A stretch of 36,271 bases of DNA. Origin: a virus (Duplodnaviria > Heunggongvirae > Uroviricota > Caudoviricetes). Positions 1-34,410 of the stretch are shown in pieces (the stretch's first letter is position 1; every line of letters begins with the position of its first letter). The stretch lies in IMG/VR virus record IMGVR_UViG_2695420676_000012, one strand, 5' to 3'. A program made the position numbers and the translations under genes. The notes beneath the pieces are model-generated. The model was not told where the DNA came from, did not search any database, and saw nothing but the letters and a program-made list of their open reading frames with translations.

Positions 1-273
1 ATGAACATCGGTAAAGCAATCATCAACTACGCAGCACGTCGCAACATGGACATTACCTTGATTGGTGATGAGGCCGTGGCGTTCTGGGAAGCGGATAACG
101 ATTGTGAATGGATGTTCTCCTACATGATTGGTAATGATGGTTTCCTCCACTTTAAAGGCAATGTGTATCTGCCGCAGGAGATTAAAGAAGAATTACCGGC
201 GTGCATCGATACAGACAAGAAGCTGAAAGAAGTAATCAACTTTATCGCTAAAGAGTTTATCAGCAAGAAGTAA
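1..273 (+). CDS. hypothetical protein (90 aa); possibly 5'-truncated at the window edge
   Basis: ORF from track; ATG at position 1, so the true start may lie upstream; no recognisable motif. Confidence 0.35.
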   Translation: MNIGKAIINYAARRNMDITLIGDEAVAFWEADNDCEWMFSYMIGNDGFLHFKGNVYLPQEIKEELPACIDTDKKLKEVINFIAKEFISKK

Positions 274-285
274 GGCAGCAAAACA

Positions 286-672
286 ATGTTCAATATCATG
301 ATTCGTAAATTTGGTGAGATGACTTTCGAGAAAGCTGGTGTTGCGCGTACAGAAGAAGAAGCAATGGCCTTAGTTCTGGTAGCACTGAGATCATCACCTG
401 AGATTATCGACGCTGAATATGTTGCGGCTGAGGGTGAGATTAAAGAGATTAAAGCGGTTGCTAAGGAATTAGGTGTTAAAGGTTTCCGTAAGCTGAAACT
501 ATCCCGCGAGACTTATGTCATTGGACAGCAAGGACAATACCTAGATGAGAATAGCGCGATTGTCCTACTGAATAAGATCACCCGCTATGGTTTCCAGATT
601 GAGCAATATAAAACGTGTTTCGAATTATACGAAAAAGGTTTGCTGGATACTCTGACCATCGTTCGTGCTTAA
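286..672 (+). CDS. hypothetical protein (128 aa)
   Basis: ORF from track; weak SD-like AAGGCAG upstream of ATG; followed by a hairpin plus T-run. Confidence 0.45.
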   Translation: MFNIMIRKFGEMTFEKAGVARTEEEAMALVLVALRSSPEIIDAEYVAAEGEIKEIKAVAKELGVKGFRKLKLSRETYVIGQQGQYLDENSAIVLLNKITRYGFQIEQYKTCFELYEKGLLDTLTIVRA

Positions 673-687
673 TTAATTTCTAATTTG

Positions 688-714
688 GTGGGTGTAATTC
701 CCACCGCTTTTTAA
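688..714 (+). terminator. Rho-independent terminator candidate
   Basis: 'ggtggg-tgtaatt-cccacc' stem-loop followed by 'gcttttt' directly after the 286-672 ORF. Confidence 0.5.
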
Positions 715-980
715 ACTGGAGAATCAAACATGTTAGCTTTTATCTCATTCGTGGGAGGTAGTCTCACAACTATGATTAGTCTTTCTTATATTGTCGTTAG
801 TATGGGGTGAGCAATGAAACAATTTCATGATGGCATTTCATCCAAGACATTCAAGAAAGAATATAGCGGATTGTGTATTAACTGGATTGATTTGATTGGT
901 GCGGTTGTGTTTGGTCTGGTAATTAGCATCAATTTTTAACGATATAAATATATCGTAATTCATTCAAAGAGGATTCAATT

Positions 981-1322
981 ATGAAAAAGACTATCTACGC
1001 AATTATTGTTTCTGTGTGTGTTGGTGGCATCGGTGGATTTGTTTGTGGGTATGACTATTCCGATACTCAACATCAAGAGACTATCCGGTCAAATAAGGCC
1101 GAGATTAAGGATCTGAATCAGGAGATTAGCCAGTTAGAAAATGCTCTCTCACTCAAAGACAGTGAATATAGCGAGGTTTATGCAGATAAACAAAAATATT
1201 GGAAAGAGAAAGATAATCTCGTTGTTTACGGGATGAAATTGTGTAAGAGCATGAAGGACGAGCGCAGTTGTTTAATGGAACTTGCCCTTAAAGGTAACGT
1301 GACCATCGACTTCAAAGACTAA
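981..1322 (+). CDS. membrane-anchored coiled-coil protein (113 aa; N-terminal TM then coiled coil, Rz/i-spanin-like topology)
   Basis: Hydrophobic N-terminus 'IYAIIVSVCVGGIGGFV' followed by heptad-like charged region; SD 'AAAGAGGA' 7 nt before ATG; TATAAATA box at 943-950. Confidence 0.5.
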   Translation: MKKTIYAIIVSVCVGGIGGFVCGYDYSDTQHQETIRSNKAEIKDLNQEISQLENALSLKDSEYSEVYADKQKYWKEKDNLVVYGMKLCKSMKDERSCLMELALKGNVTIDFKD

Positions 1323-1351
1323 TTAATTCAAATAACAAAGAGGATTCTATT

Positions 1352-1597
1352 ATGAAAAAGATTATCGCTGGTATCGTTCTTGCTCTGGGTTTGGTTGGTG
1401 CTGCAAATGCCGAACAATATGTACAGGGTGATAGTGTCAAGCGTGCTGCCGTTGCACCTTCTTTAAATCAACTGTGTACTGAATTAGCACAGGTTGCCGG
1501 AGTTGGTGACGATGACGACTTTATTACTGCGTGTGTATGGAGTCATATCGAGGATATTAATAAACGTGATGCAAAACTAACTGGAAAGAAATATTAA
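1352..1597 (+). CDS. small secreted protein with Sec-type signal peptide (81 aa)
   Basis: N-terminus 'MKKIIAGIVLALGLVGAANA-EQ' looks like a cleavable signal peptide (no lipobox Cys); SD 'AAAGAGGA'; leader nearly identical to that of the preceding gene. Confidence 0.5.
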   Translation: MKKIIAGIVLALGLVGAANAEQYVQGDSVKRAAVAPSLNQLCTELAQVAGVGDDDDFITACVWSHIEDINKRDAKLTGKKY

Positions 1598-1613
1598 TGA
1601 CTTACTAACCAAT

Positions 1614-1653
1614 GCCCCTATCGTTATAATACGCGGTAGGGGCGTTTTTGTTT
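1614..1653 (+). terminator. terminator-like hairpin plus T-run
   Basis: 'gcccctA...Taggggc' inverted repeat followed by 'gtttttgttt'; overlaps the TTG-initiated extension of the recombinase ORF. Confidence 0.4.
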
Positions 1654-1662
1654 GGAAATGGT

Positions 1663-3342
1663 ATGAAAACTAAACTGTATTCGTATATTCGCTTCTCGTC
1701 TATGCGTCAGAATGATGGTTCGAGTTATGAACGACAAATCAGGATGGCGAGAGAGGTTGCGGCAAAGTATGACCTTGAACTGGTAAATGATTATCAGGAT
1801 CTGGGTGTATCTGCGTTTAAGGGTGCTAACTCCAAAACAGGGGCGCTATCTCGTTTCCTTGATGCAATAGGTAGATCCGTTCCTGTTGGTAGCTGGCTAT
1901 TCATCGAAAACTTGGACCGTTTATCCCGTGCCGATATTGTCAGTGCGCAGGAGTTATTCCTTTCAATCATCCGTAGGGGGATAACCATTGTTACTGGCAT
2001 GGATAACAAGATCTACTCGCTGGATACTGTTACCGCTAACCCGATGGACCTGATGTTCTCCATCCTTTTATTCATCCGTGGTAATGAGGAAAGCCAGACT
2101 AAGCGCAATCGTACTAACTCAAGCGCACTGATTAAGATTAAAGCCCATCAAGAAAATCCCCAGAATCCGGCAGTGGCAATCGAGGAAGTTGGAAAGAATA
2201 TGTGGTGGACTGATACCACTTCCGGTTATGTGTTGCCTCATCCTACATACTTCCCTGTTGTTCAGGAGATTGTGGAATTACGGAAGAATGGACGTTCAAC
2301 CGCCGAGATACTGGATCACCTTAACGAGACATATACACCGCCACCAGCGGTTAGTAATAAGAAGCATTCAAAATGGTCACGGGCAATGGTTGAAAGGTTG
2401 TTCCATACCCGCGCTTTGATTGGTATCAAGGAGGTCTCTGTCGATGGTGTTAACTATGAGTTAAAGGATTATTACCCTCGTGTTATTGATGATGCTACGT
2501 TCTATCACCTTAAGAAAAATATTGGTGCTAGAGCATGGAACTTTGGAGACAAGGAAGAAGTTAAACCGATCCCCCTGCTTAGTGGTATTGGCCTATTGAA
2601 ATGTGATCATTGCGGTTGCGCTATGGTTAAAGTGAAGGGAACGAACAAACGTTCTGACCAGTATCGTTATACATGTGATGCGACCCGTTCACGTAGACTT
2701 GATTGCGAGCATCCAAACTGGAGTTTTCGAGGTGATCAATTAGAGAAAGCTGTATTGCAATTGCTGGCTGATAAAATCTGGATTGCTGAGGACAAGGCTA
2801 ATCCGGTTCCGGCGTTGAAAGTACAGGTTGATGAAATATCACGCAAGATTGATAACCTGATTGCCCTTTCTGCTATGACAGGAGCAACGAAGGAGTTAGC
2901 CGATCAGATTACTACCCTCAATAGCGAGCGTGAAACACTCTACAATCAGATCAAGATGGCAGAAGAGGAAATGTATTCTGTGGACTCTCAAGGCTGGGAG
3001 AAGCTCGCAGAATTTGATTTAGAAGATGTTTATAACGAGGAACGACTAAAGGTCCGGTTTAAGATTAAGCAAGCTCTAAAGCGGATCGGGTGTAGCAGGA
3101 TTGACAGGAATAAAAACTTGTTTGTACTGGAATACATCGATGGAAAGACCCAGAGAGTTGTAATAGAAAATTCAAGAGGAACGAGGAAAGGACAAATCTT
3201 TGTCGATTTGAAAACTATCAATGATAGGCAGATTCTGGAGAGTAACGGGCTTGTTTTGCATCCATGTTTAGACATGCTGACAGATAAGAACTGGAAACCA
3301 GAAGAGGAAATACCAGGTCCATTACAGGAATTTGGAATTTAA
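1663..3342 (+). CDS. large serine recombinase (integrase/resolvase family)
   Basis: N-terminal resolvase catalytic motifs 'YIRFSSMRQ' and 'GVSAF...LFIENLDRLSR'; downstream Cys cluster 'CDHCGCAM...YRYTCD...LDCEH' (zinc ribbon) and coiled-coil segment; track ORF opens at 1648 with TTG, first ATG at 1663. Confidence 0.8.
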   Translation: MKTKLYSYIRFSSMRQNDGSSYERQIRMAREVAAKYDLELVNDYQDLGVSAFKGANSKTGALSRFLDAIGRSVPVGSWLFIENLDRLSRADIVSAQELFLSIIRRGITIVTGMDNKIYSLDTVTANPMDLMFSILLFIRGNEESQTKRNRTNSSALIKIKAHQENPQNPAVAIEEVGKNMWWTDTTSGYVLPHPTYFPVVQEIVELRKNGRSTAEILDHLNETYTPPPAVSNKKHSKWSRAMVERLFHTRALIGIKEVSVDGVNYELKDYYPRVIDDATFYHLKKNIGARAWNFGDKEEVKPIPLLSGIGLLKCDHCGCAMVKVKGTNKRSDQYRYTCDATRSRRLDCEHPNWSFRGDQLEKAVLQLLADKIWIAEDKANPVPALKVQVDEISRKIDNLIALSAMTGATKELADQITTLNSERETLYNQIKMAEEEMYSVDSQGWEKLAEFDLEDVYNEERLKVRFKIKQALKRIGCSRIDRNKNLFVLEYIDGKTQRVVIENSRGTRKGQIFVDLKTINDRQILESNGLVLHPCLDMLTDKNWKPEEEIPGPLQEFGI

Positions 3343-3379
3343 GCGGCCTAAATCGACGTATAACGAGCTAAACACTTTA

Positions 3380-3404
3380 AGGGGTACATCTGTACCCCTT
3401 TTTA
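3380..3404 (+). terminator. Rho-independent terminator (also candidate att-core palindrome)
   Basis: 'ggggtaca-tc-tgtacccc' perfect 8-bp inverted repeat followed by 'ttttt', directly 3' of the recombinase gene. Confidence 0.5.
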
Positions 3405-3415
3405 ATTTAATTGTA

Positions 3416-4414
3416 TTAAAGAGCCTCTAAAGGGCTTAAATCGAGTTCTAAGTCTTCCGGTGTTAAATCAGCTAACGGTGCATTCATCCACTGCGATAAA
3501 TCTCGTTCTATGTCTTCATCACTAATGTAGTTGTTCAGATTGATTGCGTTGGTATCATCAAAATACATTGGCTTAGATGGGTTGGTGTGGATGTATTCAT
3601 TGATGAATGATTTAACATCTTTCAGCTTGCTAATCGGTAGCGTTTCTGTGAATCCGCTATTCATTACCTTACGTGGGATTTTCTTGCCCTGAATATTCTT
3701 TTTAATCCCCATTTCTAAATCACCAGCTTTCCATCCAATGTTAAACAAATGTGAGCATTCAAAGGTGATTTTCTCGCTGGTGTGCTTCTGGTGTTCTCTT
3801 ACCCGTTGCATCGGATCTTTGCGAGTGGTAATTCCATATTTGAAAAACTTCTCGCCAACACGAATTAGATAAAAGTGCATAGGGCGCTGTGCAAACTTGT
3901 TTCTGATAACCTGTTTTCTACCATTCTGAATTGATTTAAGTACCCCCCTAACCAAAGGGCATGTTAACCCGCCTTGTCTGCGGTTATTGTGTAAATCACC
4001 TTTCTTGTGAATCTTTCCGTGGCACTTACAACGAAGAATTAGTTTAGTGTCAACACCCTGATAAGGTTCAGCCAGACCTAACACATCCCACCCTATCGGC
4101 TTGTAGAACTTGCGAGCGTTTTCTAAGTGTTCTTCTTCGGTAAATCTAAACTTCTTCTTAGGCGGTGATACTCTATCTTTGCCAGTAAACTGACCAGTTA
4201 GAACATGACTAATACATGGCGTTTTAACCTTTCCGTTAACTTCTATGCAAACTTTGGTGTTCTGGAATGGTTTCTTTACAGGAAGCACAAAACCACTGTA
4301 TAACCATCCATGCGCTTGACAAACTTTAATGATTCTGGTTTCATATTCGACCGGAGGGGTCGCACGTTTGCTTTTTGCGGTAAATTCGATATCCTTTGCT
4401 AAAGTAGTATTCAT
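3416..4414 (-). CDS. GIY-YIG-like nuclease domain protein (candidate free-standing homing endonuclease), 332 aa
   Basis: Central segment 'FYLIRVGEKFFKYGIT...RVREH...ITFECSHLF...LEMGIKKNI' resembles the GIY / YIG / Arg / FECS / Glu spacing of I-TevI-type nucleases; Cys/His-rich N-terminal part; SD GAGGA before ATG. Confidence 0.4.
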   Translation of the reverse strand: MNTTLAKDIEFTAKSKRATPPVEYETRIIKVCQAHGWLYSGFVLPVKKPFQNTKVCIEVNGKVKTPCISHVLTGQFTGKDRVSPPKKKFRFTEEEHLENARKFYKPIGWDVLGLAEPYQGVDTKLILRCKCHGKIHKKGDLHNNRRQGGLTCPLVRGVLKSIQNGRKQVIRNKFAQRPMHFYLIRVGEKFFKYGITTRKDPMQRVREHQKHTSEKITFECSHLFNIGWKAGDLEMGIKKNIQGKKIPRKVMNSGFTETLPISKLKDVKSFINEYIHTNPSKPMYFDDTNAINLNNYISDEDIERDLSQWMNAPLADLTPEDLELDLSPLEAL

Positions 4415-4456
4415 AGTAGTGAATCCTCAATAAAATAATATTCACTACTATTTATA
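4414..4456 (-). promoter_or_regulatory. TATAAATA box plus 11-bp hairpin occluding the RBS/start codon of the 3416-4414 gene
   Basis: Minus-strand 'TTATAAATAgtagtgaat[loop with GAGG]attcactactATG'; perfect 11-bp inverted repeat 4414-4424 / 4440-4450. Confidence 0.45.
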
Positions 4457-4460
4457 AGAA

Positions 4461-4832
4461 TTAATTATTGTAGTTTTGGAAACCAGTAAGATCGCAAAAT
4501 GAATCAGTGTCATGTGCTGGGGAACGATGTTCTGCTTCGTCAGAGAAAATGTTGGCTACCGGAGATTCCACTTTAACTTCCGGTGCTTCTTCAACATCTG
4601 ACTTAACTTCTTCGACCACTGGTTCAACTGCTGGAGATTCTTCTTTTGTTTCTTCAATGACGATCTCAGGTTCTTTCATTGCTTCAACCAGAGACGGATC
4701 AACTTCGTCGAATACAACTTTATCATCTGCGGTATATTTGTCTATAATGAAAAAATGGTCAGAAATATAGCTAACGTCGCCAGCATATTCTAACAAAAAA
4801 GCGCCTCTGGTGGGCGCTTTTGTTTTATCCAT
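4461..4832 (-). CDS. acidic hypothetical protein (E/V/P-rich); start uncertain
   Basis: Track ORF 4461-4862 starts with TTG and overlaps the peptidase gene and a hairpin; first in-frame ATG at 4832; codon usage matches neighbours better than the antisense S/T-rich ORF. Confidence 0.35.
   Translation of the reverse strand: MDKTKAPTRGAFLLEYAGDVSYISDHFFIIDKYTADDKVVFDEVDPSLVEAMKEPEIVIEETKEESPAVEPVVEEVKSDVEEAPEVKVESPVANIFSDEAEHRSPAHDTDSFCDLTGFQNYNN
4800..4827. terminator. bidirectional terminator-like hairpin
   Basis: 'agcgcc-tctggtg-ggcgct' flanked by A-run upstream and 'tttgtttt' downstream, at the 3' end of the peptidase gene. Confidence 0.45.
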
Positions 4833-5178
4833 TCCACCGTGATTTTTTTGATCTGGAATCAATATGCGTAAAGGTTTTATATTTTCCTAAGCCGTATTGA
4901 GTAGGATATTTCCCATCAAGATAAGCATGAACAATATCAGGAGAAATTCCTTTCACCGATATGTCAGCCGCGCGGCCTCGAACGTGATAGCTATTGGCTG
5001 CCCCGCCTACATTCTTGTTATGAGTCGGGCAACGGTTGCCACTGTTAATAATCACTGGTTTACCGAAGTGCTCTCGTACATCCTCAAGAATCACCAGTAA
5101 TTCAGCGTCGATTGTATCATAATCACATTTTCCGCATTTACATTTAAATTCCTTGCGAGAAAAATGCTTACTTAACAT
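4825..5178 (-). CDS. peptidase M15 family zinc peptidase (D-Ala-D-Ala carboxypeptidase-like), probable endolysin
   Basis: 'FSRKEFKCKCGKC...' then 'SGNRCPTHNKNVGGAANSYHVRGRAADI', the hallmark SG(Y/N)R..HN...S.H..G.A.D signature; SD 'AAGGGGGT'. Confidence 0.75.
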   Translation of the reverse strand: MLSKHFSRKEFKCKCGKCDYDTIDAELLVILEDVREHFGKPVIINSGNRCPTHNKNVGGAANSYHVRGRAADISVKGISPDIVHAYLDGKYPTQYGLGKYKTFTHIDSRSKKSRWNG

Positions 5179-5187
5179 ATTACCCCC

Positions 5188-5535
5188 TTAGATATATTGC
5201 ATAAGATAGCCGGTAAATCTAAGTCCCTTGATATAATAGTTAGTTGTCCCTACACACACCGCGCGTGTATCGCCAATACAATTGAAGTTGTAAGGATTAA
5301 CTACATCAATCTCCTGCCCTACACGAAAGCGATACTTAGGACGTTTAGCGAGTGTCGCAACACAAAACACTAGCCCGTTACCATCATCGCGGATCATCTG
5401 CTTGAATTGTTTATGTTGGACTCTCTTCGCCTCAAAATCATAGGTCATTGATTCTGGGCTAATGCCATTGATAAAAATACCGGAAAGCTGGTCGACCGGA
5501 TAAGTAGGAAATTCAGTGAAAATATTTTTAGCCAT
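5188..5535 (-). CDS. hypothetical protein (115 aa)
   Basis: ORF with SD 'GGGGGT' 6-7 nt before ATG; no recognisable motif. Confidence 0.5.
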   Translation of the reverse strand: MAKNIFTEFPTYPVDQLSGIFINGISPESMTYDFEAKRVQHKQFKQMIRDDGNGLVFCVATLAKRPKYRFRVGQEIDVVNPYNFNCIGDTRAVCVGTTNYYIKGLRFTGYLMQYI

Positions 5536-5573
5536 GTTATACCCCCATAAGTTTCTATGAGGGTATTTATGGA

Positions 5574-6257
5574 TTAAACGTATTTCATGCGCGATTTAAT
5601 GTGCTTATTGATGTTTTCAAGCATCATTGCTTCGTTGCTTTCCCACGATCCTAGCGTCGAATAACGAGTAGAAATTTTATCCGATTTAACGGCAACAATT
5701 CGCTTGCTCTGTTTCTGTATGCGTTTCTCTAAGCGACGTTTTGCCACCGCCGATCCATTCCTAGCGCGTTTGGTTCGGGATTTCTTAGGCTTGTACTTCT
5801 TCATGATAAAAGTCCCTTCCTTGTTCTCTACCTTGATGAAGTTGCCGTTTTCGAGGTTACGCATCATCTTACCGCCTTTGATGGCCTTAATGTTCCCGTG
5901 GGCGTCTAAGACCTTACCGTTGGCGATTGGAACTAGCTTATTGATTTTGCCCCCATCGAAATAGTGTTTCAGATAGTCGTCCTGACTGCCGATCTTCTTA
6001 TCCTTATCCCTTGCGCCCTTGATGAAGATTTGGTGTCTCGTCCCTGATCGGTTCTTGTAGTTGGTATTACCTACAGCTTGCTGAGTCCAGCGAGTAGGTC
6101 TATCAACATTCTTGTTAATCTTCTTCTGGAGTGCTCTGGAAGCAAAGATCGCCCCTTCCCCTATCGCCCTTTCGAATGTATCGGTTGCCTTTTCAGACCA
6201 TTGCCTCAACGCTTTCTTAGTCCTTAGAGCGTTTCGTTTATTGGTACTGGTTGCCAT
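5574..6257 (-). CDS. highly basic (K/R-rich) hypothetical protein, 227 aa
   Basis: ORF with SD 'AGGGGG'; start ATG overlaps the stop of the upstream small ORF (TAAcATG). Confidence 0.5.
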   Translation of the reverse strand: MATSTNKRNALRTKKALRQWSEKATDTFERAIGEGAIFASRALQKKINKNVDRPTRWTQQAVGNTNYKNRSGTRHQIFIKGARDKDKKIGSQDDYLKHYFDGGKINKLVPIANGKVLDAHGNIKAIKGGKMMRNLENGNFIKVENKEGTFIMKKYKPKKSRTKRARNGSAVAKRRLEKRIQKQSKRIVAVKSDKISTRYSTLGSWESNEAMMLENINKHIKSRMKYV

Positions 6258-6258
6258 G

Positions 6259-6429
6259 TTAGCCCCCTAATAACGAAAAGACCCCCGCCAGTGTCCTTAG
6301 CAATTGTTCATCCACGGTCATAGCCGGGAGTTCAAGCCCAAAGGACGTTAGCAGAGGTCTAATAGCTACGTTATAAGTGAGGGCGACAATCAAGAGATAA
6401 CCAAAATATTTCTTAAGTTTATTCTTCAT
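6259..6429 (-). CDS. small membrane protein (56 aa), not in the ORF track; holin-like size
   Basis: Manual translation 'MKNKLKKYFGYLLIVALTYNVAIRPLLTSFGLELPAMTVDEQLLRTLAGVFSLLGG'; SD 'AAAGGGGTG' upstream. Confidence 0.35.
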   Translation of the reverse strand: MKNKLKKYFGYLLIVALTYNVAIRPLLTSFGLELPAMTVDEQLLRTLAGVFSLLGG

Positions 6430-6447
6430 ATATTCACCCCTTTATTA

Positions 6448-6726
6448 TTATTTTTGTTTGAGTATGTCGAGAACTTGGTCAAATTTGGCGTCCATCGCAA
6501 CCACTTTCTTCTCTATACCGTGTAGTGTTTGTTCCATTTGGTAAACACGTTCAGCAATCTGAGTATGGTTATTCTGCATCGTCTCAAACTTCTGGTTTAA
6601 CAATGCGTCGCTGGATTCCAATTTCGACAATCTATTTTCTGTAGCTAATTGATTTCGGTGAAGTCTCCAAAGCCCACCACAAATTAAGGCGATAACACCG
6701 ATACCGCCATATATAATTTCAGTCAT
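6448..6726 (-). CDS. membrane-anchored coiled-coil protein (92 aa; i-spanin-like topology)
   Basis: N-terminal TM 'IIYGGIGVIALICGGLW' followed by coiled-coil-like region; SD 'GGGGG' before ATG. Confidence 0.5.
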   Translation of the reverse strand: MTEIIYGGIGVIALICGGLWRLHRNQLATENRLSKLESSDALLNQKFETMQNNHTQIAERVYQMEQTLHGIEKKVVAMDAKFDQVLDILKQK

Positions 6727-6771
6727 TACGCCCCCGATATTTTTATATAATTTAATGGCAGAATTATTTAG

Positions 6772-6814
6772 ATAAAAATAATCCCGCCTAACTCAAAAGA
6801 ATTAAGCGGGATTA
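6772..6814 (-). terminator. Rho-independent terminator after the J-like gene
   Basis: ~10-bp stem 'atcccgcCtaa / ttaagcgggat' followed on the minus strand by a T-run. Confidence 0.5.
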
Positions 6815-6831
6815 ATTATTAGAATTAAATT

Positions 6832-9800
6832 TTAAGAAACAGAAATACCAGTAGCGGCTTTCTTAGTTACCATTACCGTTAGATCGCTGATATATGCACT
6901 TGGGTTATAGTTGTTAACGCCCTTACAGTAAACTTCAAAAGTCATTGTTACTGCCCCGTGTCCGGCTGGCATGTCAATAACTCCACTGTACATACAGCCA
7001 GAAGTTGCAGTGCGATCATATAGAACACCACCATTTTTCTTAACGATTAGTCGGCAAGTATCCCAATGATCGCTACTTTCGCCACGACGAACAGACCCGT
7101 TATGATGAATCGCTGGAATCACTATTTGGCGATCGAATGGATGATCATCTTCGACCCTTACAGTGATTGCACCATCAGGCCAGTTTGGTTGGCGATGCGG
7201 GAAACTCCTACCAACCACTTTCACGAAGTCACCACGCACCTGATTAGCATCAAGCATACCCAAAATGCGGCAACTTGAATTAATCGTTACGTTGTTCATT
7301 TCGCCGGAATCAGCCACCAAATGACCACGAATATTAGCGTGTCTAAAATGACAAGTGCCATCTTTGCCGATATACCATCCATCGTTACCATTCCAGTTAT
7401 AAGACTGGATATAGTTACCAATTTTAGCATTATCGATAGAGCCATCAATGATATGACCTGTTCCGATCTGTGCGTGTTGGATGTGAGCGCCGTTAATCTG
7501 GGCTGTGCCGATCTTAGCCGTGGTGATACTAGCATCACTAATCTGGGCTGTGCCAATTGCAGCATTACGAATCATCGCATTATCAAGATAAACTTTGTTA
7601 TCTTCGATGCCAAACGGACAAACTTCTGATCCGTCTTGTGGAGCTACCGCGATTTTATCAGCCGTAAAGATGATTCTTGTCGGTTCTGCCGGATCATTGG
7701 TTGCGCTCATATGAATACCAGCCACGCGACCATCTGCATTAACTGCCAGATTATATTTGCTGTTAATGGTTCCCTTCAAAGCATCGATTTTTACATCTGC
7801 TTCCTGATTCACACCAGCAATCTTGCCATCCATTTCTACCCGAACTTGATCAATCTTACTTGCGCTTGCTGCCTCACTGGTAGCAATTGCTTGTTTCAGG
7901 GTAGTAGCAGATGCGCTAACTTCTTTGGTGATATCGCCTTTCAGTTCAGCTTTAACCTGATCAATCTTAGTTGCGCTGGCTTGCTCACTGGTAGCAATCA
8001 GACTCTTGAGAGTATCGGCTGAGGCTTGGACCGTCTGCCCTGTCTCGGTAGTAATCTGTTTATGCATTGCATCAATCTTAGCATCGGCATTAGCGCCAGC
8101 TTGAGCAATAGCATCCGCGATGGTTTCATCTAAGCGATCTTGTAAACCAATCAGGTCTTCCAGTGCTTCTTTGTCCTGATCGTCCCAGCTAATGGTAGAT
8201 TTCATTTGCATGAAATACGGTTCAGACCAAACAGCATCATCCATACCGAAAATATCATAGTGAGCACCACGGATATAATAATCACCGTCAGCCAAATCAA
8301 AGGAAGTATGACTAACGCTATTGGTAGTCACTGCCCTTGCATCGGAGAAAGTATTATCGGTTGCATACTGGATGATTGACCCTGCATAGTCATGTTCTAC
8401 GTCATCCGCCCAGCTAACAAACGCAGTATTAAAGCCACCACGCGCACTAAAACCTTTCATCGGCTTATGTTGTGGGTTGATAGCCACTAAACGCGCTGGG
8501 GCGCTCTCTGAGTTGTTATAGCCCTTGACTGATACTTCTACCGTCAATTCACGGGAAAGGCCGTTAAACTGGTTCATATCAAGCGTATAAGTCCATGATT
8601 CAGGATCGCGGGTACGGTACTGAATAGACTTACCAGCCTTGTTAGTTACCTTGATAATGTATGCTTCAAACAGGTCACTAAACTTGTTAGCTTCACCGTT
8701 GATCATCACATCTAATTGTTGCTGATTTTCCCATTCGATAATCAGATCATTGCCTTCGAAAGTACCAGGCGTGCTACCCTGATTTTTGATTCGAATAACC
8801 GGAGTCGGCAATTCATAGGTAACAGTAGGATTCTGGTTAACCAGTTCCACCCATTCGGAACGAGCAATAATACCGAAAGCACAAACGCGGTAATCGTAGG
8901 AGCGATCTTTTGCCAGTGCATTGATATTGAAAATTTGCTGTGAAGTCTGCCCCAGCTTAATCCAGTTAGGCGATCCACTTACACGGTAATCAATCTGGAA
9001 ACCGTAGCGGTTAAAATCTTCCGGTGCATCCCATGTCAAAGTAACGTTTTTACCGTGGATTGTCTCACCAGTTGCCTTAATTCTGAAATTAGTCGGTTTC
9101 TGTACTGTCATTGAATCCGGTAAACCAGTAGGTCTATTGTCTGGAGTTGCCGCATAGTTCAGGTCAGTATAAACCTGAGAATTATATTCTGTGGCGGTGA
9201 TAGTCATCATCCCAGCAATACCAGAATCAATAGAACGATCAATTGCAGTAATGCGCCAAAGTGAATTATTCAGTTTCAATTCATCATAGGTTACGCTGAT
9301 AACGTCCCATACTTCGGCGGTGAATGCGTCAGTAGTCATAAAGCTGATAACCTGAGTGATACGAGATTTATTTCGTTCTACACTCGCAAGTTTATCAATC
9401 TGGGCTTTAGACTTAACAAAACGATATTCAATATCTTTAGCGATAATTCGACCATCTTGACGAATAGTAGCATCGTTTTCAGCATCAGCCGGATAACGTA
9501 GCATTTGCTCTGAATAGTCGATTGATGGTTCTTGATACATCGCGTTAATGGTATTGAAATAACCGTTAGTGCCACCTGTTTTCAGTGATACCTTACCCAT
9601 CATGATATTGTCTTCATTGAAGGTATGCTTAACAATATCAGGAGCATCCAGTTTCAGCGTAATACGTCCAAAGGATTCGAACATCACCCCGCCGAAAGTC
9701 TGCATAAGGCTAGTTAAGTTCTCTTTAAAGCTGGCGTTCGGATCACATGCACCGTTGGAATGTAAATCCATCTGGCGTACTTGTTTACGCACTTTCAGGA

Positions 9801-10578
9801 ATGAATCAACGTTAATATTTTCAATCGGTACACTAAGACCATACTTTGTATTTGTCAGATAATGGAAAATCTGGTCCACGCCGTTAGTGCTAGCCTCAAT
9901 AGCATTGGTTTCAAGGTTACGAATCTTTAAGCCCATAACATCGACCGCTACCTGGCTATTAGGCTGGAGAATATCAACACCAGCAGCCAAAGATTTGTCA
10001 TCACGACGTAAAACAATACACATGGTCGCAATGCCGTTACCCTGATACCGATCATCCCAATCAGCGCCCAAATGATGTTTAGCTAAATCCAATGCAGTGT
10101 TAGGATTTTTACCCGTGCGAAACTCGACTTCTAAAACTTTGCGGTATTCGTCTTTAATGTTTCCTTTATCGAGAATGCCATCACGAATTGTCATATTCTG
10201 GCTAATGAGAACGTTTTTATTATCGATGTGCAGTGCTTTAAAGTGATCGATCTCACCTTCGGCAATAGCAAAAATTTGTACCAGCTTGTTATTTTCACGC
10301 TGTGAAATTGCCTTGTAAACGCAGATTGCACCAGTTCGGGTAGTACCGAAAAGAACGGGTAAAACTGTCTTAGGATCGTTTGATGTTCCTAGTGTCACCG
10401 CATTATCTGGGCTTTGTACTTTAGGTGTTTTTGGTGCGCCTACAGTGGAAGCGATCAAGGTCATTGCACCAGCAGCCATACCGATAGCGACTGCGGTCAT
10501 AACAGAAAATGTTGCAGCAGCAGCCATCCCAGCAGACGCACCAGCAATAACCGCGCCTACCAATATTTCAAATCCCAT
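6832..10578 (-). CDS. central tail fibre / host-specificity protein (lambda gpJ-like), 1248 aa
   Basis: Size and position after a K-like gene; C-terminal ~110 aa ('DDHPFDRQIV...VIDMPAG...TGISVS') resemble my recollection of the lambda J receptor-binding end; SD 'GGGGGTG'. Confidence 0.8.
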   Translation of the reverse strand: MGFEILVGAVIAGASAGMAAAATFSVMTAVAIGMAAGAMTLIASTVGAPKTPKVQSPDNAVTLGTSNDPKTVLPVLFGTTRTGAICVYKAISQRENNKLVQIFAIAEGEIDHFKALHIDNKNVLISQNMTIRDGILDKGNIKDEYRKVLEVEFRTGKNPNTALDLAKHHLGADWDDRYQGNGIATMCIVLRRDDKSLAAGVDILQPNSQVAVDVMGLKIRNLETNAIEASTNGVDQIFHYLTNTKYGLSVPIENINVDSFLKVRKQVRQMDLHSNGACDPNASFKENLTSLMQTFGGVMFESFGRITLKLDAPDIVKHTFNEDNIMMGKVSLKTGGTNGYFNTINAMYQEPSIDYSEQMLRYPADAENDATIRQDGRIIAKDIEYRFVKSKAQIDKLASVERNKSRITQVISFMTTDAFTAEVWDVISVTYDELKLNNSLWRITAIDRSIDSGIAGMMTITATEYNSQVYTDLNYAATPDNRPTGLPDSMTVQKPTNFRIKATGETIHGKNVTLTWDAPEDFNRYGFQIDYRVSGSPNWIKLGQTSQQIFNINALAKDRSYDYRVCAFGIIARSEWVELVNQNPTVTYELPTPVIRIKNQGSTPGTFEGNDLIIEWENQQQLDVMINGEANKFSDLFEAYIIKVTNKAGKSIQYRTRDPESWTYTLDMNQFNGLSRELTVEVSVKGYNNSESAPARLVAINPQHKPMKGFSARGGFNTAFVSWADDVEHDYAGSIIQYATDNTFSDARAVTTNSVSHTSFDLADGDYYIRGAHYDIFGMDDAVWSEPYFMQMKSTISWDDQDKEALEDLIGLQDRLDETIADAIAQAGANADAKIDAMHKQITTETGQTVQASADTLKSLIATSEQASATKIDQVKAELKGDITKEVSASATTLKQAIATSEAASASKIDQVRVEMDGKIAGVNQEADVKIDALKGTINSKYNLAVNADGRVAGIHMSATNDPAEPTRIIFTADKIAVAPQDGSEVCPFGIEDNKVYLDNAMIRNAAIGTAQISDASITTAKIGTAQINGAHIQHAQIGTGHIIDGSIDNAKIGNYIQSYNWNGNDGWYIGKDGTCHFRHANIRGHLVADSGEMNNVTINSSCRILGMLDANQVRGDFVKVVGRSFPHRQPNWPDGAITVRVEDDHPFDRQIVIPAIHHNGSVRRGESSDHWDTCRLIVKKNGGVLYDRTATSGCMYSGVIDMPAGHGAVTMTFEVYCKGVNNYNPSAYISDLTVMVTKKAATGISVS

Positions 10579-10997
10579 TATTCACCCCCGAATCTATAAA
10601 CTTGTTCATAGTCAATGTCTGAAACAGGAATGGTCATCCAGATACCATCTTCTTCAACAAGGCCATAACCGGAATAATGAGGAACTACGGAATAATATTT
10701 GCGGTTTCCTAATTTGTGGGCTGTGACCAGTAAGTCGCCGTCCTGTAAATCATCAGTGACTAATTTGAAATGTTTCTTAATTGGTTGAAGGATATTTGAA
10801 TACCCGCTTAATTCTTTGCAGATTTTCAAGCCTTCTTCTTTAGTTGAATATTTTTTATAAAGAGAATTATATAGGTCAGTACCAGCGAGAATATCGATGA
10901 TCTTACATGCAATTAGATTGCAATCATTCTCGCCTTGAACGAACTCCTGACCTATTAAAGAATTGATGTAATCGGTGATAAGCCTAGTTTTTAGCAT
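10578..10997 (-). CDS. tail tip protein with NlpC/P60-like motifs (lambda gpK-like)
   Basis: 'ENDCNLIACKI' (Cys) and later 'VVPHYSGYG' (His); start set at the ATG with SD GGAGGT (track ORF extends to 11153 through a start lacking an SD). Confidence 0.45.
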   Translation of the reverse strand: MLKTRLITDYINSLIGQEFVQGENDCNLIACKIIDILAGTDLYNSLYKKYSTKEEGLKICKELSGYSNILQPIKKHFKLVTDDLQDGDLLVTAHKLGNRKYYSVVPHYSGYGLVEEDGIWMTIPVSDIDYEQVYRFGGE

Positions 10998-11043
10998 GTT
11001 GAATACCTCCATGCTGTTATTTACTAGGCTTAGGGAGAAGGGA

Positions 11044-11697
11044 TTATTTCTTCGATGAATGCCACTTGCTTTCCGATTGCCAGCGCCCGGTCCTTGAGAA
11101 GAATAGATCGTTCTCGTTTCCAACATAGGAACGGTGGATACCATCGGAGGCATGACTACGAGCGTTTTTATCTAGAACTTCCCAGATACTATTAAGCTGA
11201 AATTCTGATTCGTTTTTACACTCATCATCTTCATGTTCGATGTTAATACCGATGGAATCGACTACCCCACGGAAAACAGGGTAAGTGGTTTCAACCTTGC
11301 CCGTGTTGGGGTTAAGGAAAACCATCTCGATTTTCACATCGGATTTATCGAATTGCTTGTTTCGAATGAGAGTAATGTATTCTTCGCGAACGTTAGAAAC
11401 GGTTACGTTAATCCCGTTGTTGTTGATCTCCTTCTCTTCGGTATTCGATGAGATTTGAAGAAAATCACCCGTTGCGAGATACGTAAATCCGTTATAGTCC
11501 AAATCGAAATACCCATCTGTAAGCCGTAGAACGTCCCCTGACGCTGTTATCACTTCGATAATGTGAAACATCGATCCAGTGGAAAAAAGCTGCGGTAGCG
11601 TCAATCTAGACACGTTCTGACCTGTCTGGTCGTTGTAGACCTCGATGAAGTCCAGATTAGTGCATAGTTTGCTGAATGATTCCTGAATAGTTGCCAT
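11044..11697 (-). CDS. minor tail protein (lambda gpL-like by position and size)
   Basis: ~218 aa between the M-like and K-like genes; start ATG overlaps the upstream stop (TAATG); weak resemblance to gpL. Confidence 0.4.
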   Translation of the reverse strand: MATIQESFSKLCTNLDFIEVYNDQTGQNVSRLTLPQLFSTGSMFHIIEVITASGDVLRLTDGYFDLDYNGFTYLATGDFLQISSNTEEKEINNNGINVTVSNVREEYITLIRNKQFDKSDVKIEMVFLNPNTGKVETTYPVFRGVVDSIGINIEHEDDECKNESEFQLNSIWEVLDKNARSHASDGIHRSYVGNENDLFFSRTGRWQSESKWHSSKK

Positions 11698-12257
11698 TAT
11701 ACATTCTCCACTAATTCGAATTTCATCTTGCCAATCTGGGCGATCTTCCAATCGATATTTTCAGTTTTGAGAACAAATTCACCTTCTACGTTCTGATACT
11801 TGATCACCTCACCAGCCAGGACGTTTTGACGCAAGTTAGGGAAGAGTTTCATTTCACCACCTGATTTCACATCTTCGGTGATCGTGTAGATTTTCTTGTG
11901 GTTCTCAAACTGGATGATAGTTCCCGCTTTCAGTGTTCCGGTGAAGTTGGAGAGTCTTACCTTACGCCCACCGCGAGCAGTACCAGCAGCAGCCGTTACC
12001 ATCTGGCGTACATCGCCTGTATATTTTGAAAAGTAAGACAGTGGCACACTAAAAGGACGACCAAAAAGGTGACGTGCTACAAATTCTTTTACTTCGTTAA
12101 TATCCTGAGCCATGAAATTAGCTGTAAATTCTGCTTCATAAAAATGAATACCAGTAAAGCGACGCTGGAACTTACCAGAAATAGATTGCGCCTTGAAGAA
12201 AGGCTGTTTTGATTTAAGAGTAAAATCTGTGATTTTAATATTCTTGGATTTGAACAT
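11697..12257 (-). CDS. minor/distal tail protein (gpM/Dit position), 186 aa
   Basis: First gene after the tape measure; SD 'GGGGG' lies in the 3' arm of the 12263-12302 hairpin. Confidence 0.4.
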   Translation of the reverse strand: MFKSKNIKITDFTLKSKQPFFKAQSISGKFQRRFTGIHFYEAEFTANFMAQDINEVKEFVARHLFGRPFSVPLSYFSKYTGDVRQMVTAAAGTARGGRKVRLSNFTGTLKAGTIIQFENHKKIYTITEDVKSGGEMKLFPNLRQNVLAGEVIKYQNVEGEFVLKTENIDWKIAQIGKMKFELVENV

Positions 12258-29500: not shown

Positions 29501-30334
29501 TCAGATCCCAAAATCAACAAGGGAAATTACGTTACCTGATTCACGAATCTGTTTAGCAGCTTTGTTTTGAATCAGAATAGTGTTATTTGGCTGCGGCAGT
29601 TTAAGAGTTGCTTTCTGTTCTTCTTCCAAAACGCCCAATTCAACCAGCACCGGAAGAACATCAACAGTAAACTCAAGCTGGTAATGAGCATTCATGCGGC
29701 AGAAAGACAGAGAAGAGTCATTAGCAACATACCCACACGGCTTGTTATTTTCATCATAGACGCGCTCAATGTAGCCAGCAGTACGTAAGGCCGTCAGTGC
29801 TTGTTTAACCTTCGTAGCGCCCTTTTTAGCGCCTAACAGACGTGTCATAGAATGGCTATCTACGGATTTGCGAATGTGTAGCTCAATCAGTTTTTTATTT
29901 TTGCGTTTTTCATCTAATGCCAGTTCGATCCAGTCGGTTTCTTCAAAGTCCGCATACGGGTTAACAGGAGTATTATTGGCGGTTTTCAGTTTCTCTTCCA
30001 GATAATTCCAACGGTCAACCAGTTGGCGAGTAAATTCCGGTACGTTTTGAGCAATCAAGACAATCGAATCTAAGCGACCTTGCTCACCCTCAAACACATA
30101 ATCTTTAACAGTAACAGCAAACCCTAAGTTATTGATTTTTTCGAAATTCTGCGTTGCAGGTTTTCGGATAACTTGGCGTTCAACCAGTCGGTTCATAGAA
30201 GTTTCAAGGTTTGAAAAACGAACTCCAATAAGGTCGGCAATTTCACGAAGAGTCATTTTTGCAACTTCGTTATCAACAACCAGAGACACGGAAGCAGTTT
30301 TAACAGCAGTATTCATAGTAGTAACAGTATTCAT
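29501..30334 (-). CDS. Rha-like phage regulatory protein (antirepressor-like), 277 aa
   Basis: N-terminal 'MTLREIADLIGVRFSNLETSMNRLVERQVI' resembles the Rha N-terminal DNA-binding motif; SD 'AAGGGG'. Confidence 0.45.
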   Translation of the reverse strand: MNTVTTMNTAVKTASVSLVVDNEVAKMTLREIADLIGVRFSNLETSMNRLVERQVIRKPATQNFEKINNLGFAVTVKDYVFEGEQGRLDSIVLIAQNVPEFTRQLVDRWNYLEEKLKTANNTPVNPYADFEETDWIELALDEKRKNKKLIELHIRKSVDSHSMTRLLGAKKGATKVKQALTALRTAGYIERVYDENNKPCGYVANDSSLSFCRMNAHYQLEFTVDVLPVLVELGVLEEEQKATLKLPQPNNTILIQNKAAKQIRESGNVISLVDFGI

Positions 30335-30423
30335 AGTAAAATTCCCCTTAAACGGTTTAGTGATATTGATCCTCCTAGTTCCGGCATCACCACCGGAACA
30401 TTTTTATTTATGATAGAAATTTA

Positions 30424-30756
30424 TTACCAATCGATTTCTACTTGGTCTTCTTCATAATAAGGAATCGCATATTCATAACGCCAATTTTCGATGATTTCAC
30501 GTTCTTCATTAGTAAGAAGGTGATTGTTAACTGGAGTCGCATTGTGATTACCAGCTTCGAATTGCTCGCGAACTTCCAGCATTGCATGAATACCAGTTAA
30601 GGTCATCAGATCAAACGGAACATGCATACTACGGGAGATAGTTTCACGGGATACACCCCAATCATTTTCTACATGGCTAGGGGTTACAGAAACGGTTTTG
30701 CCGGAGATTTTAACAGTCCAGTCATACAGGGATTTAGTGATGGTAAATTCTTTCAT
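30424..30756 (-). CDS. hypothetical protein, 110 aa
   Basis: ORF with SD 'AAGAGGA'. Confidence 0.5.
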   Translation of the reverse strand: MKEFTITKSLYDWTVKISGKTVSVTPSHVENDWGVSRETISRSMHVPFDLMTLTGIHAMLEVREQFEAGNHNATPVNNHLLTNEEREIIENWRYEYAIPYYEEDQVEIDW

Positions 30757-30802
30757 GTTACATCCTCTTTACAAATCTAGGTCAAATAGATTCAAAGTTG
30801 TC

Positions 30803-30830
30803 AAGTGCGATAATCATAAAAAAGTCAGAA
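30803..30830 (-). promoter_or_regulatory. sigma70-like promoter candidate (minus strand) inside an inverted TTGTCAA/TTGACAA pair
   Basis: Minus-strand 'TTGACA'-17 nt-'TATGAT'; plus strand shows 'ttgtcaa-tacccc-ttgacaa' inverted repeat at 30825-30847. Confidence 0.3.
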
Positions 30831-30876
30831 ATTTTTGTCAATACCCCTTGACAAGACGCCAAAGGGTTGACCTAAC

Positions 30877-31335: not shown

Positions 31336-31355
31336 AGTGGTATCCTCTAAAAGAA

Positions 31356-31386
31356 AGTGAATCAAGTAAGTTCACTATTATTTATA
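31356..31386 (-). promoter_or_regulatory. TATAAATA box followed by GTGAA/TTCAC hairpin upstream of the 30877-31335 gene
   Basis: Minus-strand 'TTATAAATAatAGTGAActtacttgaTTCACT...AGAGGA...ATG'; same architecture as 4414-4456 and 32508-32537. Confidence 0.4.
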
Positions 31387-31588
31387 AAGAGAAAATTCTT
31401 GTTATTATGAAAGGTGATTGTATTCAGTCGGGCAAAGCCCTCCTTCATGATTTGATTAAATTATGATCAAAACGAAGAAGTATCTTTAGAATATAATAAT
31501 CTTTCTTTTGGAGAAATAATAATCAGGAAGTAATTTAGCAACCGAAGGTTGCAATCCCGAAGGGATACCAATACCTTTCATGATCATT

Positions 31589-34405: not shown

Positions 34406-34410
34406 GACAA

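Follow-up and report, generated by a model that had tools for sequence, protein, structure and literature searches.

A large serine recombinase of an Escherichia coli prophage, its probable attachment site in ycdX and the palindrome at the 3′ end of its gene

A perfect palindrome directly 3′ of a large serine recombinase (LSR) gene raises the question of whether it is the site at which the enzyme recombines or the terminator of its gene. We examined this for a 36,271-nucleotide stretch of tailed-phage DNA, IMG/VR record IMGVR_UViG_2695420676_000012, which we refer to as the window. We conclude that the LSR encoded at 1663–3342 very probably integrates a phage of ~37–39 kb at a TT dinucleotide in the host gene ycdX, and that the palindrome at 3379–3400 is very probably the terminator of the LSR gene.

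The prophage and its recombinase

The window is the interior of a siphovirus-like temperate prophage of E. coli, ~37–39 kb in length. A query with positions 1–12000 found matches in 62 of 5,426 complete E. coli genomes. All were chromosomal, and in 44 genomes the match extended over at least 80% of the query. The prophage encodes a full siphovirus-type morphogenesis module; this module and the chromosomal integration bear out the temperate lifestyle that the original prediction had proposed (with a mobile cassette as its alternative). Copies in IMG/VR are derived from prophages and trimmed at gene boundaries, as the window is, and the right end of the window is mosaic, closest to a relative inserted in hicB. 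Searches of 50,697 phage records by megablast with 1300–3700 and by blastn with the capsid-to-terminase region found no relatives, and the sole DNA similarity to these records was one 565-nt stretch at 70%. No sequenced isolate of the phage was present among them, which left no free-phage ends from which to define attP. We found no description of the element in the literature on ycdX or hicB with prophage or serine integrase.

The open reading frame at 1648–3342 was confirmed in the sequence (TTG start, 564 aa). Translation probably begins at the ATG at 1663; the protein then has 559 aa, a length that RefSeq also assigns to a 99.3%-identical copy. The features of the gene are as follows.

1663–3342, + strand: LSR (integrase) gene, 559 aa (Pfam, PHROG, alignment, AlphaFold2, Foldseek)
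1678–2121, + strand: Resolvase domain (PF00239), N-terminal and catalytic, residues 6–153, nucleophile S12 (Pfam, 9.8e-15)
2254–2523, + strand: Recombinase domain (PF07508), residues 198–287 (Pfam, 4e-9)
2590–2766, + strand: zinc ribbon (PF13408, Zn_ribbon_recom), residues 310–368 (Pfam, 1e-10)
2806–2979, + strand: predicted coiled coil, residues 382–439 (AlphaFold2 model)
3076–3339, + strand: beta-rich C-terminal extension, residues 472–559 (predicted structure)

The motifs YIRFSS and LDRLSR occupy residues 8–13 and 84–89. In an alignment of 33 homologues, R10, S12, Q16, D85, R86 and R89 were all invariant, as were the cysteines C314, C317, C338 and C348. PHROG 95 ('integrase') matched the protein at 3.3e-63. 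In the AlphaFold2 model (pLDDT 82.8), two long antiparallel helices, residues 382–406 and 410–439, immediately follow the zinc ribbon. A phmmer search of the PDB returned nothing at E ≤ 1e-3 (only 3guv, at 0.0025), and it was the comparison of folds that established the relationship. The best Foldseek matches of the model were full-length serine integrases (E from 4e-17 to about 1e-8), and it aligned over its whole length with the cryo-EM or crystal structures 9dxf, 9dxd, 9dxh, phiC31 (9rah) and LI (4kis); the alignments take in integrase structures that contain the coiled coil. We also found that the model matched the C-terminal domains of attP-bound LI integrase (4kis, E = 3e-8), and that the catalytic domain superposed on those of TP901-1, gamma-delta and Sin. 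That the protein is a phiC31-type LSR, as had been proposed from the resolvase motifs, Cys zinc ribbon and coiled coil, is supported by its domains, its invariant catalytic residues and its predicted fold, and it is presumably catalytically active.

LSRs carry out unidirectional attP × attB recombination without host factors and require a directionality factor for excision; the coiled coil emerging from the zinc ribbon governs synapsis and directionality. Among the ORFs neighbouring the LSR gene, no directionality factor, repressor or replication gene was recognizable by Pfam or PHROGs.

Insertion sites of the prophage and its relatives

The crossover was defined by comparing attL and attR with the empty K-12 site. 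The genes at the two edges of the window are the outermost prophage genes.

1–273, + strand: first prophage gene, left edge of the window (match to locus L009; 27 genomes with the junction)
35966–36271, + strand: last prophage gene, right edge of the window (relatives L015–L017, L019–L022 and L070)

Locus L009 is identical to window 1–7342 (0 mismatches) and upstream runs into a C-terminal fragment of ycdX; in UTME-9, the C-terminal and N-terminal fragments of ycdX are parted by the prophage. Six of the eight contigs listed with an identical LSR reach host DNA, all six beside csgG-ycdZ-ycdY, and in four the ycdX fragment is called as a gene. The attL junction in ycdX is present in 27 complete E. 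coli genomes, and in CFSAN061761 the distance from attL to attR is 39,265 bp. Only a TT is common to the host and phage arms (attB A-TT-T, attP G-TT-C). It lies 43–44 nt upstream of window position 1 and ~1.7 kb upstream of the LSR gene, and the P′ arm of attP (CCCTAATATCATGTACCCAC...) ends 2 nt ahead of position 1. On the right side, the P arm (...GGGGGTTGACTACGTTCGGG) and the TT were located, in the relatives listed above, 88–89 nt past the stop codon of the last gene. Both junctions are outside the window, so we infer its insertion site from the contigs with an identical LSR and from L009, identical over 7.3 kb.

Joining the two prophage ends gives a putative attP of ...TATTGGGGGTTGACTACGTTCGGG-TT-CCCTAATATCATGTACCCACAATA..., centred on GTTCGGG-TT-CCCTAATATC. 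The corresponding attB, ...CATATTTGGGA-TT-TCCGGGATGG..., belongs to the host gene ycdX, which encodes a zinc phosphatase and is split by the insertion. This attP is a reconstruction, because no excised or circular junction occurred among the contig collections scanned; neither the ycdX-type nor the hicB-type junction had an exact match in IMG/VR viral or JGI metagenome contigs. The reconstructed attP has dyad symmetry at 16 of 24 positions, compared with 6 expected by chance, and attB at 8 of 24. The junctions thus look like those of the LSR family: the crossover is 2 bp and non-palindromic, the dyad symmetry of attP is imperfect, and long direct repeats are absent. By analogy with the phiC31, Bxb1 and LI integrases, LSR dimers would bind the ~50-bp attP and ~40-bp attB through their Recombinase and zinc-ribbon domains; after synapsis, Ser12 would cut both sites at the central dinucleotide, and the subunits would rotate and religate. 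The prophage can presumably be excised, with a predicted circular junction of ...GTTCGGGTTCCCTAATATC....

Within this prophage family, we found that LSRs with 74–94% identity insert at three or more chromosomal targets, namely ycdX, hicB (an antitoxin gene) and a gene for a codB-like permease. The P′ arm motif TT-(C/G)CCTAA(T/C)AT is common to Salmonella relatives and to relatives at the hicB and codB-like sites, and LSR type, attP arm and target co-vary on the same contigs. The LSR P0009 belongs to a prophage in hicB (loci L025 and L026, beside ydcR-ydcS) and is 94% identical to the LSR of the window. The two proteins differ at 34 residues, 33 of them within residues 195–351; the catalytic domains are identical, and the coiled-coil and C-terminal regions differ at a single position (543).

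2245–2715, + strand: putative target-specificity segment of the LSR, codons 195–351 (33 of 34 differences from P0009), across the Recombinase domain and the greater part of the zinc ribbon

We slightly favour the view that these relatives form a natural retargeting series in which the 157-residue cassette, with the cognate attP arms, may be sufficient to switch the target. If so, evolution would already have validated a compact template from which serine-integrase specificity could be reprogrammed. For this uncharacterized enterobacterial LSR clade, the comparison yields an attP/attB pair whose TT core lies in ycdX, and it shows close relatives reaching hicB and a codB-like gene by way of substitutions restricted to the two DNA-binding domains. 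Orthogonal integration tools, and work on how sites are recognized, can draw on LSR/att pairs native to E. coli and on specificity switches that arose naturally. In a lysogen, ycdX is split or the hicB antitoxin gene truncated, and host phenotypes could follow.

These data also bear on whether the LSR is the integrase at all, rather than a resolvase, invertase, transposase-like enzyme or defence-island-associated serine recombinase in a phage integrated by another factor. The sources name the protein merely 'recombinase family protein', a second, weaker PHROG match is to 'DNA invertase', and a variable island with nuclease and helicase genes follows the LSR gene; it has been proposed that serine recombinases mark defence islands (PMC12632615). 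Against this, the architecture and fold of the protein are those of a complete LSR and are not found in small invertases and resolvases; RefSeq annotates no other recombinase in the UTME-9 copy of the prophage; and a Pfam scan of 21 window ORFs, a set with a minority of the small ORFs, revealed no other integrase family. The junctions carry the LSR signature of a 2-bp overlap and a dyad-symmetric attP, and, within single contigs, substitutions in the DNA-binding domains go together with the insertion site. We consider integration by another factor extremely improbable, and take the LSR to be the integrase of the prophage.

The palindrome behind the gene

The LSR gene is flanked by hairpins on both sides.

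1611–1646, + strand: terminator-like hairpin, GCCCCTA...TAGGGGC followed by TTTTT (terminator scan, 14 pairs)
3379–3405, + strand: predicted intrinsic terminator of the LSR gene (terminator scan, folding, conservation in 42 loci)

The sequence GGGGTACA-TC-TGTACCCC is exactly 3381–3398, so the predicted perfect 8-bp inverted repeat around a dinucleotide is present. Its real extent is a perfect 10+2+10 palindrome, AAGGGGTACATCTGTACCCCTT, at 3379–3400, followed by TTTAATTT. It lies 37 nt past the LSR stop codon, between convergent genes, and is flagged by the terminator scan. As RNA, the element at 3379–3405 forms a 9-bp stem with a 4-nt loop and a G+C core, GGGGTAC/GTACCCC, that is conserved in the family, followed by a T-run. 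The hairpin has a folding energy of −14.5 kcal/mol (z = −4.2), and none of 200 shuffled sequences was equally stable. A perfect 8-bp repeat with a 2-nt spacer is by itself unremarkable: the window has two, and Markov-1 simulations gave a mean of 0.72, with at least one in 53%. What is non-random is the combination of a G+C-rich stem, a T-run and a position after the stop codon.

Across 42 family loci, a 7-bp stem and the T-run were nearly invariant, the stem being one base shorter in four. The centre of the hairpin took nine forms (ATTC in 16 loci, AGAT in 11, ATCT in 8, ATCC in 2, GAT in 2, and others), and its central dinucleotide differed (TC, TT, GA and others) even where the loci encode an identical LSR. 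GGGGTAC/GTACCCC and the T-run persist in Salmonella relatives despite a diverged surrounding spacer. Scan, folding energy and conservation of stem and T-run all support the terminator function that the original prediction had also suggested for the palindrome. The palindrome would act as a Rho-independent terminator, a G+C-rich hairpin followed by a U-tract, and transcription of the LSR gene probably ends there. We also considered a bidirectional terminator and rejected it; the reverse-strand U-tract is poor (UUAAAGUGUUU), so termination is probably mainly unidirectional.

The original prediction had in addition suggested that 3381–3398 is an att core; this would make it attP or another recombination site of the LSR, with a TC crossover. 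The layout, with two perfect 8-bp arms flanking 2 nt, invites this reading, as does the place beside the integrase gene, a frequent position of attP, and the 8-mer ATGTACCC occurs both in the palindrome, read on its bottom strand, and distally in the true P′ arm. However, prophages are colinear over 3381–3398 in at least 44 genomes, leaving neither attL nor attR there, and the real junctions are in ycdX, 1.7 kb away. The variable centre is difficult to reconcile with a crossover dinucleotide, which should be constant for a given LSR, and the 8+2+8 layout is kept in only 17 of the 42 loci. Nor does the palindrome co-vary with specificity: it is identical in sister phages that integrate into hicB or the codB-like gene, although their true attP arms differ. 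It spans 22 bp, whereas serine-integrase sites span ~40–50 bp (PMC3783163). The sharing of ATGTACCC is at chance level (about one occurrence expected per 72 kb of two strands), and the hicB-type P′ arm has ATGCCCCC instead. Binding of the LSR to the palindrome through GTACCC motifs in common with the P′ arm was rejected because of this chance-level match and lack of co-variation. The att-core reading was overturned by the very observation that the original prediction had named as decisive, prophage junctions mapping elsewhere (to the TT in ycdX), and we regard it as having almost no chance of being correct.

A further alternative is that the palindrome acts at the DNA level, besides or instead of termination, as the site of a dimeric phage regulator or as a module boundary for exchange of the variable island. 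The stem is constant base for base, with no compensatory pairs, even beside the diverged Salmonella spacer, and the loop occurs in both orientations (ATCT and AGAT), a signature of DNA-level hairpin or template-switch events. The variable island starts right after the palindrome, and in the loci printed the similarity among relatives breaks at ~3407, a few bases past the T-run, where different cargo genes follow. On the other side, the 7-bp G+C stem and T-run 37 nt past the stop codon explain the palindrome fully as a terminator. A short stem leaves little room for substitutions, no candidate binding protein is known, and terminators at gene boundaries are often mosaic joints because they are located between genes. 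The palindrome is unique in the window, and further occurrences of GGGGTACA and TGTACCC are single half-sites, as frequent as expected by chance. As the stem never varies, covariation is uninformative, and with no compensatory changes the comparative data are equally compatible with an RNA hairpin and a DNA-level palindrome. On balance, a DNA-level role appears unlikely, and termination remains our preferred explanation.

The hairpin ahead of the gene, at 1611–1646, sits between an 81-aa ORF and the LSR start and has a perfect TATAAT in its loop (1625–1630). Its arms and the TATAAT are kept 5′ of the LSR gene in E. coli relatives and in Salmonella relatives (71–77% protein identity). It may serve as a terminator or as the integrase promoter. 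The LSR cassette, which is conserved, has this hairpin ahead of it and the predicted terminator at 3379–3400 behind it.

Comparison with known systems

The LSR is an ordinary, uncharacterized member of a known family. The prophage is of the conventional serine-integrase type, and no new mechanism is involved. The hairpin behind its gene differs in nothing material from canonical Rho-independent terminators, having the same G+C-rich stem of 7–9 bp, 4-nt loop and immediate U-tract (UUUUUAAUUU).

Among isolated phages, the nearest proteins are the LSRs of Burkholderia phages JC1, Bcep176 and Bcep22 and the YbcK-like LSRs of E. coli lambdoid phages (4A7, Perceval and others). The similarity covers 80–94% of the length, and several of these proteins are annotated as serine recombinase or integrase, but identity is only 28–32% and the phage backbones are unrelated to that of the window.

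Durrant et al. (2022) derived attB and attP by comparing integrated elements with empty sites, and reported TT cores and clusters in which close orthologues hit different target genes (PMC10083194). In the text parts of the supplements to that study, we did not find the LSR of the window or its att sequences. The present family resembles such clusters, with ycdX, hicB and codB-like targets among close relatives.

The integrases of phiC31 and of Listeria (the A118-like LI integrase) and the integrase–RDF complexes 9dxd, 9dxf and 9dxh have the same domain order as the LSR of the window: a catalytic domain, a long helix, the Recombinase domain and a zinc ribbon carrying the coiled coil. The catalytic Ser, Arg and Asp and the four Cys residues are conserved, and the predicted fold aligns over the whole length, although identity in the structural alignments is only 14–16%. 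These systems also share a non-palindromic 2-bp crossover, an imperfectly dyad-symmetric attP and a target inside a host gene. Unlike them, the LSR of the window has an extra beta-rich C-terminal region of ~90 aa (residues 472–559) and a Gram-negative enterobacterial host, and its gene is 1.7 kb from attP, with four small ORFs between.

The integrase and its prophage

The open reading frame 1648-3342 was listed with a TTG start, and the ATG at 1663 gives a large serine recombinase (LSR) of 559 aa, equal in length to the product that RefSeq annotates in E. coli UTME-9, whose copy is 99.3% identical.

Features of the integrase region
1611-1646: terminator-like hairpin, 17 nt before the integrase ATG, with a perfect TATAAT in its loop (1625-1630)
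1663-3342, plus strand: LSR gene
LSR residues 8-13 (YIRFSS), 84-89 (LDRLSR) and a CxxC...C...C cluster: motifs seen in the sequence
LSR residues 6-153: Resolvase (Pfam, 9.8e-15)
LSR residues 198-287: Recombinase (Pfam, 4e-9)
LSR residues 310-368: Zn_ribbon_recom (Pfam, 1e-10)
3381-3398: palindrome GGGGTACA-TC-TGTACCCC, a perfect 8+2+8 inverted repeat
3416-4414 and 4461-4862, minus strand: cargo-island ORFs

The YIRFSS, LDRLSR and Cys-cluster motifs of the original prediction are present in the 559-aa protein, and its assignment to the phiC31-type serine integrases is borne out by the three Pfam domains, the invariant catalytic residues and structural matches to integrases. In an alignment of 33 homologues, with identity down to 28%, S12, R10, Q16, D85, R86 and R89 were invariant, as were C314, C317, C338 and C348, and PHROGs assigned the protein to phrog_95 'integrase' (3.3e-63). 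An AlphaFold2 model (mean pLDDT 82.8) had the domains in the expected succession, with long helices (382-406 and 410-439) after the zinc ribbon and then a beta-rich C-terminal region. The best Foldseek matches of this model in the PDB were full-length serine integrases (9dxf, 9dxd, 9dxh, phiC31 integrase 9rah and LI integrase 4kis; E 4e-17 to 3e-8, 14-16% identity); in a plain sequence search of the PDB, the best E-value was 0.0025. The window protein shows all of the family's defining features that could be tested and is a genuine, though divergent, large serine recombinase. The beta-rich region of about 90 aa (residues 472-559, window 3076-3339), past the coiled coil and the three Pfam matches, is almost invariant between enzymes that target the host genes ycdX and hicB.

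A temperate lifestyle, which had been suggested from the recombinase, is supported by chromosomal prophages: among 5,426 complete E. coli genomes, 62 matched window 1-12000, with 80-99% identity and always in the chromosome, and at least 80% of this query was covered in 44 genomes. The window encodes a lambda-type terminase, portal, protease-capsid fusion, tail tube, tail-tip J protein, tail fibre and M15 endolysin. RefSeq annotates no tyrosine integrase or second recombinase in the UTME-9 copy, and no integrase family was found among the 21 window ORFs scanned against Pfam, a set that took in only a minority of the small ORFs. No sequenced phage isolate was alike at the DNA level. UTME-9 (NZ_CP157110.1) carries two related prophages, in ycdX (3380617-3417838) and in hicB (around 2805817-2812122, L024), so that a single cell harbours both integrase specificities. 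In HeN100 (NZ_CP044443.1), the region of hit H46, which matches window 29552-36271 in the right-hand early region, also covers the annotated colistin-resistance gene mcr-1.1 with ISApl1 and ISKpn26, suggesting an insertion inside the prophage.

Attachment sites and crossover

The window runs from the ATG of the first prophage gene to the stop of the last, and IMG/VR copies of the family are trimmed alike from gene start to gene stop; because of this trimming, the attachment junctions lie just outside the window. The UTME-9 prophage separates a ycdX fragment without its N terminus from one without its C terminus, and alignment with the intact K-12 gene placed both breakpoints at the same spot. 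Six of the eight contigs shown with an identical LSR reach host DNA, all beside csgG-ycdZ-ycdY, and the ycdX fragment is also a called gene in four of these six. The left junction of L009, one of these six contigs and identical to window 1-7342, reads ...CATATTTGGGA-TT-CCCTAATATCATGTACCCACAATAACACGAGGGGGTACAACA, followed by the ATG at position 1, and this puts the crossover 43-44 nt before position 1 and about 1.7 kb before the start of the integrase gene. With the last window gene as probe, seven genomes gave right junctions of the form ...GGGGGTTGACTACGTTCGGG-TT-TCCGGGATGGCTTATT..., with the TT 88-89 nt past the stop codon of that gene. In CFSAN061761, both junctions are available, 39,265 bp apart, and the bases around the TT differ between the host site (attB, A-TT-T) and the phage site (attP, G-TT-C), which confines the exchange to the TT. 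The crossover thus maps to the TT in ycdX and not to 3381-3398, where the original prediction had looked for it and through which prophage copies in E. coli genomes are uninterrupted.

Dyad symmetry was found at 16 of 24 positions in the reconstructed attP (6 expected by chance) and 8 of 24 in attB. The ycdX sites share the standard anatomy of serine-integrase sites, which are about 40-50 bp long with imperfect dyad symmetry and a non-palindromic central dinucleotide (PMC3783163). With a 300-nt attL probe, 27 complete E. coli genomes were found to carry the junction; in nearly all others, the match stopped at the TT and covered only the intact host half. Excised attP was not found in viral or metagenome contig collections.

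Integration splits the zinc-phosphatase gene ycdX (host flanks L001/L002), and sister phages remove the C-terminal part of the antitoxin HicB, leaving hicA intact (host flanks L004/L005). About 90 nt past the last prophage gene, locus L023 (GCA_040375855.1, ABTEJR010000014.1) has a hybrid right junction, with the attP left arm of the ycdX type (...GACTACGTTCGGG-TT) running into host DNA of hicB (GCCAATTCGCC...). Off-target integration or a recombinant phage could account for it, and the junction suggests that crossover in hicB takes place at the TT beside GCC.

The palindrome 3' of the integrase gene

The palindrome extends to a perfect 10+2+10 repeat (3379-3400), followed by TTTAATTT. Perfect 8+2+8 inverted repeats occur twice in the 36-kb window, with a mean of 0.72 in simulations and at least one in 53% of simulated sequences, and such a repeat alone is not improbable in 36 kb. 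It is the context that makes it non-random: it lies 37 nt past the LSR stop codon between convergent genes, is picked up by a terminator scan and folds as RNA at -14.5 kcal/mol (z = -4.2), a stability that no sequence among 200 shuffles reached. The stem GGGGTAC/GTACCCC and the T-run persist in 42 related loci, four of which have a stem 1 base shorter, and the centre reads ATTC (16), AGAT (11), ATCT (8), ATCC (2), GAT (2) or, once each, GATT, TTAG and a deletion. Several loci with an identical LSR protein have ATTC rather than the window's ATCT. The perfect 8+2+8 layout is present in only 17 of the 42; two further loci keep its centre but lack a base in the 3' arm. This hairpin also lies after the integrase gene in relatives integrated in hicB (87-94% LSR identity), at a codB-like permease gene (74%) and, despite a diverged stop-to-hairpin spacer, in Salmonella ycdX relatives (71-77%). 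By contrast, the attP arms change with the target gene.

The two readings make opposite predictions: in a terminator, the loop may vary while the stem and T-run stay fixed, with no tie to integration specificity, and in a crossover site the reverse should hold. Because the loop is free, the stem and T-run are fixed and the hairpin is independent of integration specificity, the palindrome is not an att core and is very probably the integrase-gene terminator. Of the two roles originally proposed, termination accords with the conserved stem, T-run and RNA fold, and the att core is refuted by junctions in ycdX and a varying centre. An additional role at the DNA level, whether in binding a protein or in marking a boundary for module exchange, would fit the lack of compensatory changes in the stem across family loci and, in the loci printed, the end of family similarity at about 3407, a few bases past the hairpin, after which different cargo genes follow; we consider such a role improbable.

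The bottom strand of the palindrome (3391-3398) carries ATGTACCC, an 8-mer that also stands in the distal part of the attP P' arm (…ATCATGTACCCAC), just before window position 1. We judged this match coincidental: chance alone would give about one, and in hicB-type phages the arm has ATGCCCCC with the palindrome unchanged. The loop (window 3387-3392) occurs in both orientations in the 42 loci (ATCT in 8, AGAT in 11), variants that look like small inversions as from template switching in hairpins.

Both arms and the TATAAT of the upstream hairpin (1611-1646) are kept in Salmonella relatives, even with a shorter loop, and this hairpin may be a promoter embedded in a terminator, insulating integrase expression. 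A variable cargo island (about 3407-4824) lies between the integrase terminator and the endolysin gene. Its window version comprises a 133-aa ORF and one for a 332-aa protein whose C-terminal part is endonuclease-like (phrog_681). In their place, relatives have a GIY-YIG nuclease, a UvsW-like DEAD-box helicase or other unknown proteins. The island may be a defence or counter-defence hotspot.

Target specificity and relation to known integrases

Closely related LSRs of this prophage family use different targets, as seen at the sister-integrase loci (L025/L026, L027-L030 and L034/L035).

Targets of related LSRs
P0009: 94% LSR identity, antitoxin gene hicB
P0018: 89% LSR identity, antitoxin gene hicB
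P0066: 74% LSR identity, codB-like permease gene
Salmonella relatives: 71-77% LSR identity, ycdX

Where a contig provides both ends, each LSR type is paired with its own attP arm and target gene. P0009 differs from the window LSR at 34 residues, 33 of which fall in 195-351 (window 2245-2715), the Recombinase and zinc-ribbon domains; the two enzymes share an identical catalytic domain, and the one remaining difference, at position 543, falls in the coiled-coil and C-terminal regions. According to the accepted model, the att half-sites are recognised by the Recombinase and zinc-ribbon domains, and the distribution of these differences agrees with it. This pair offers a compact natural specificity switch.

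We infer LSR activity, termination and excision. Most likely, the phage circularises so that the right-end P arm and left-end P' arm meet as attP. With its Recombinase and zinc-ribbon domains, the LSR would bind attP and the attB in ycdX, then synapse the sites, cut at TT via Ser12, rotate and religate, yielding the attL and attR seen in genomes and a split ycdX. The integrase gene would form a small insulated cassette, with a hairpin before it and a terminator after it. No directionality factor could be named among the ORFs searched with Pfam and PHROGs.

A literature search found no published description of the ycdX prophage or its integrase. The searched supplement text of a large LSR catalogue (PMC10083194) did not contain the window LSR, which the catalogue as a whole may well include. 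Members of the clade of the window LSR are widespread in E. coli, Shigella, Salmonella, E. fergusonii and Edwardsiella and carry no annotation there beyond 'recombinase family protein'. Among isolated phages, the nearest integrases, those of Burkholderia JC1, Bcep176 and Bcep22 and the YbcK-like LSRs of E. coli lambdoid phages, are only 28-32% identical.
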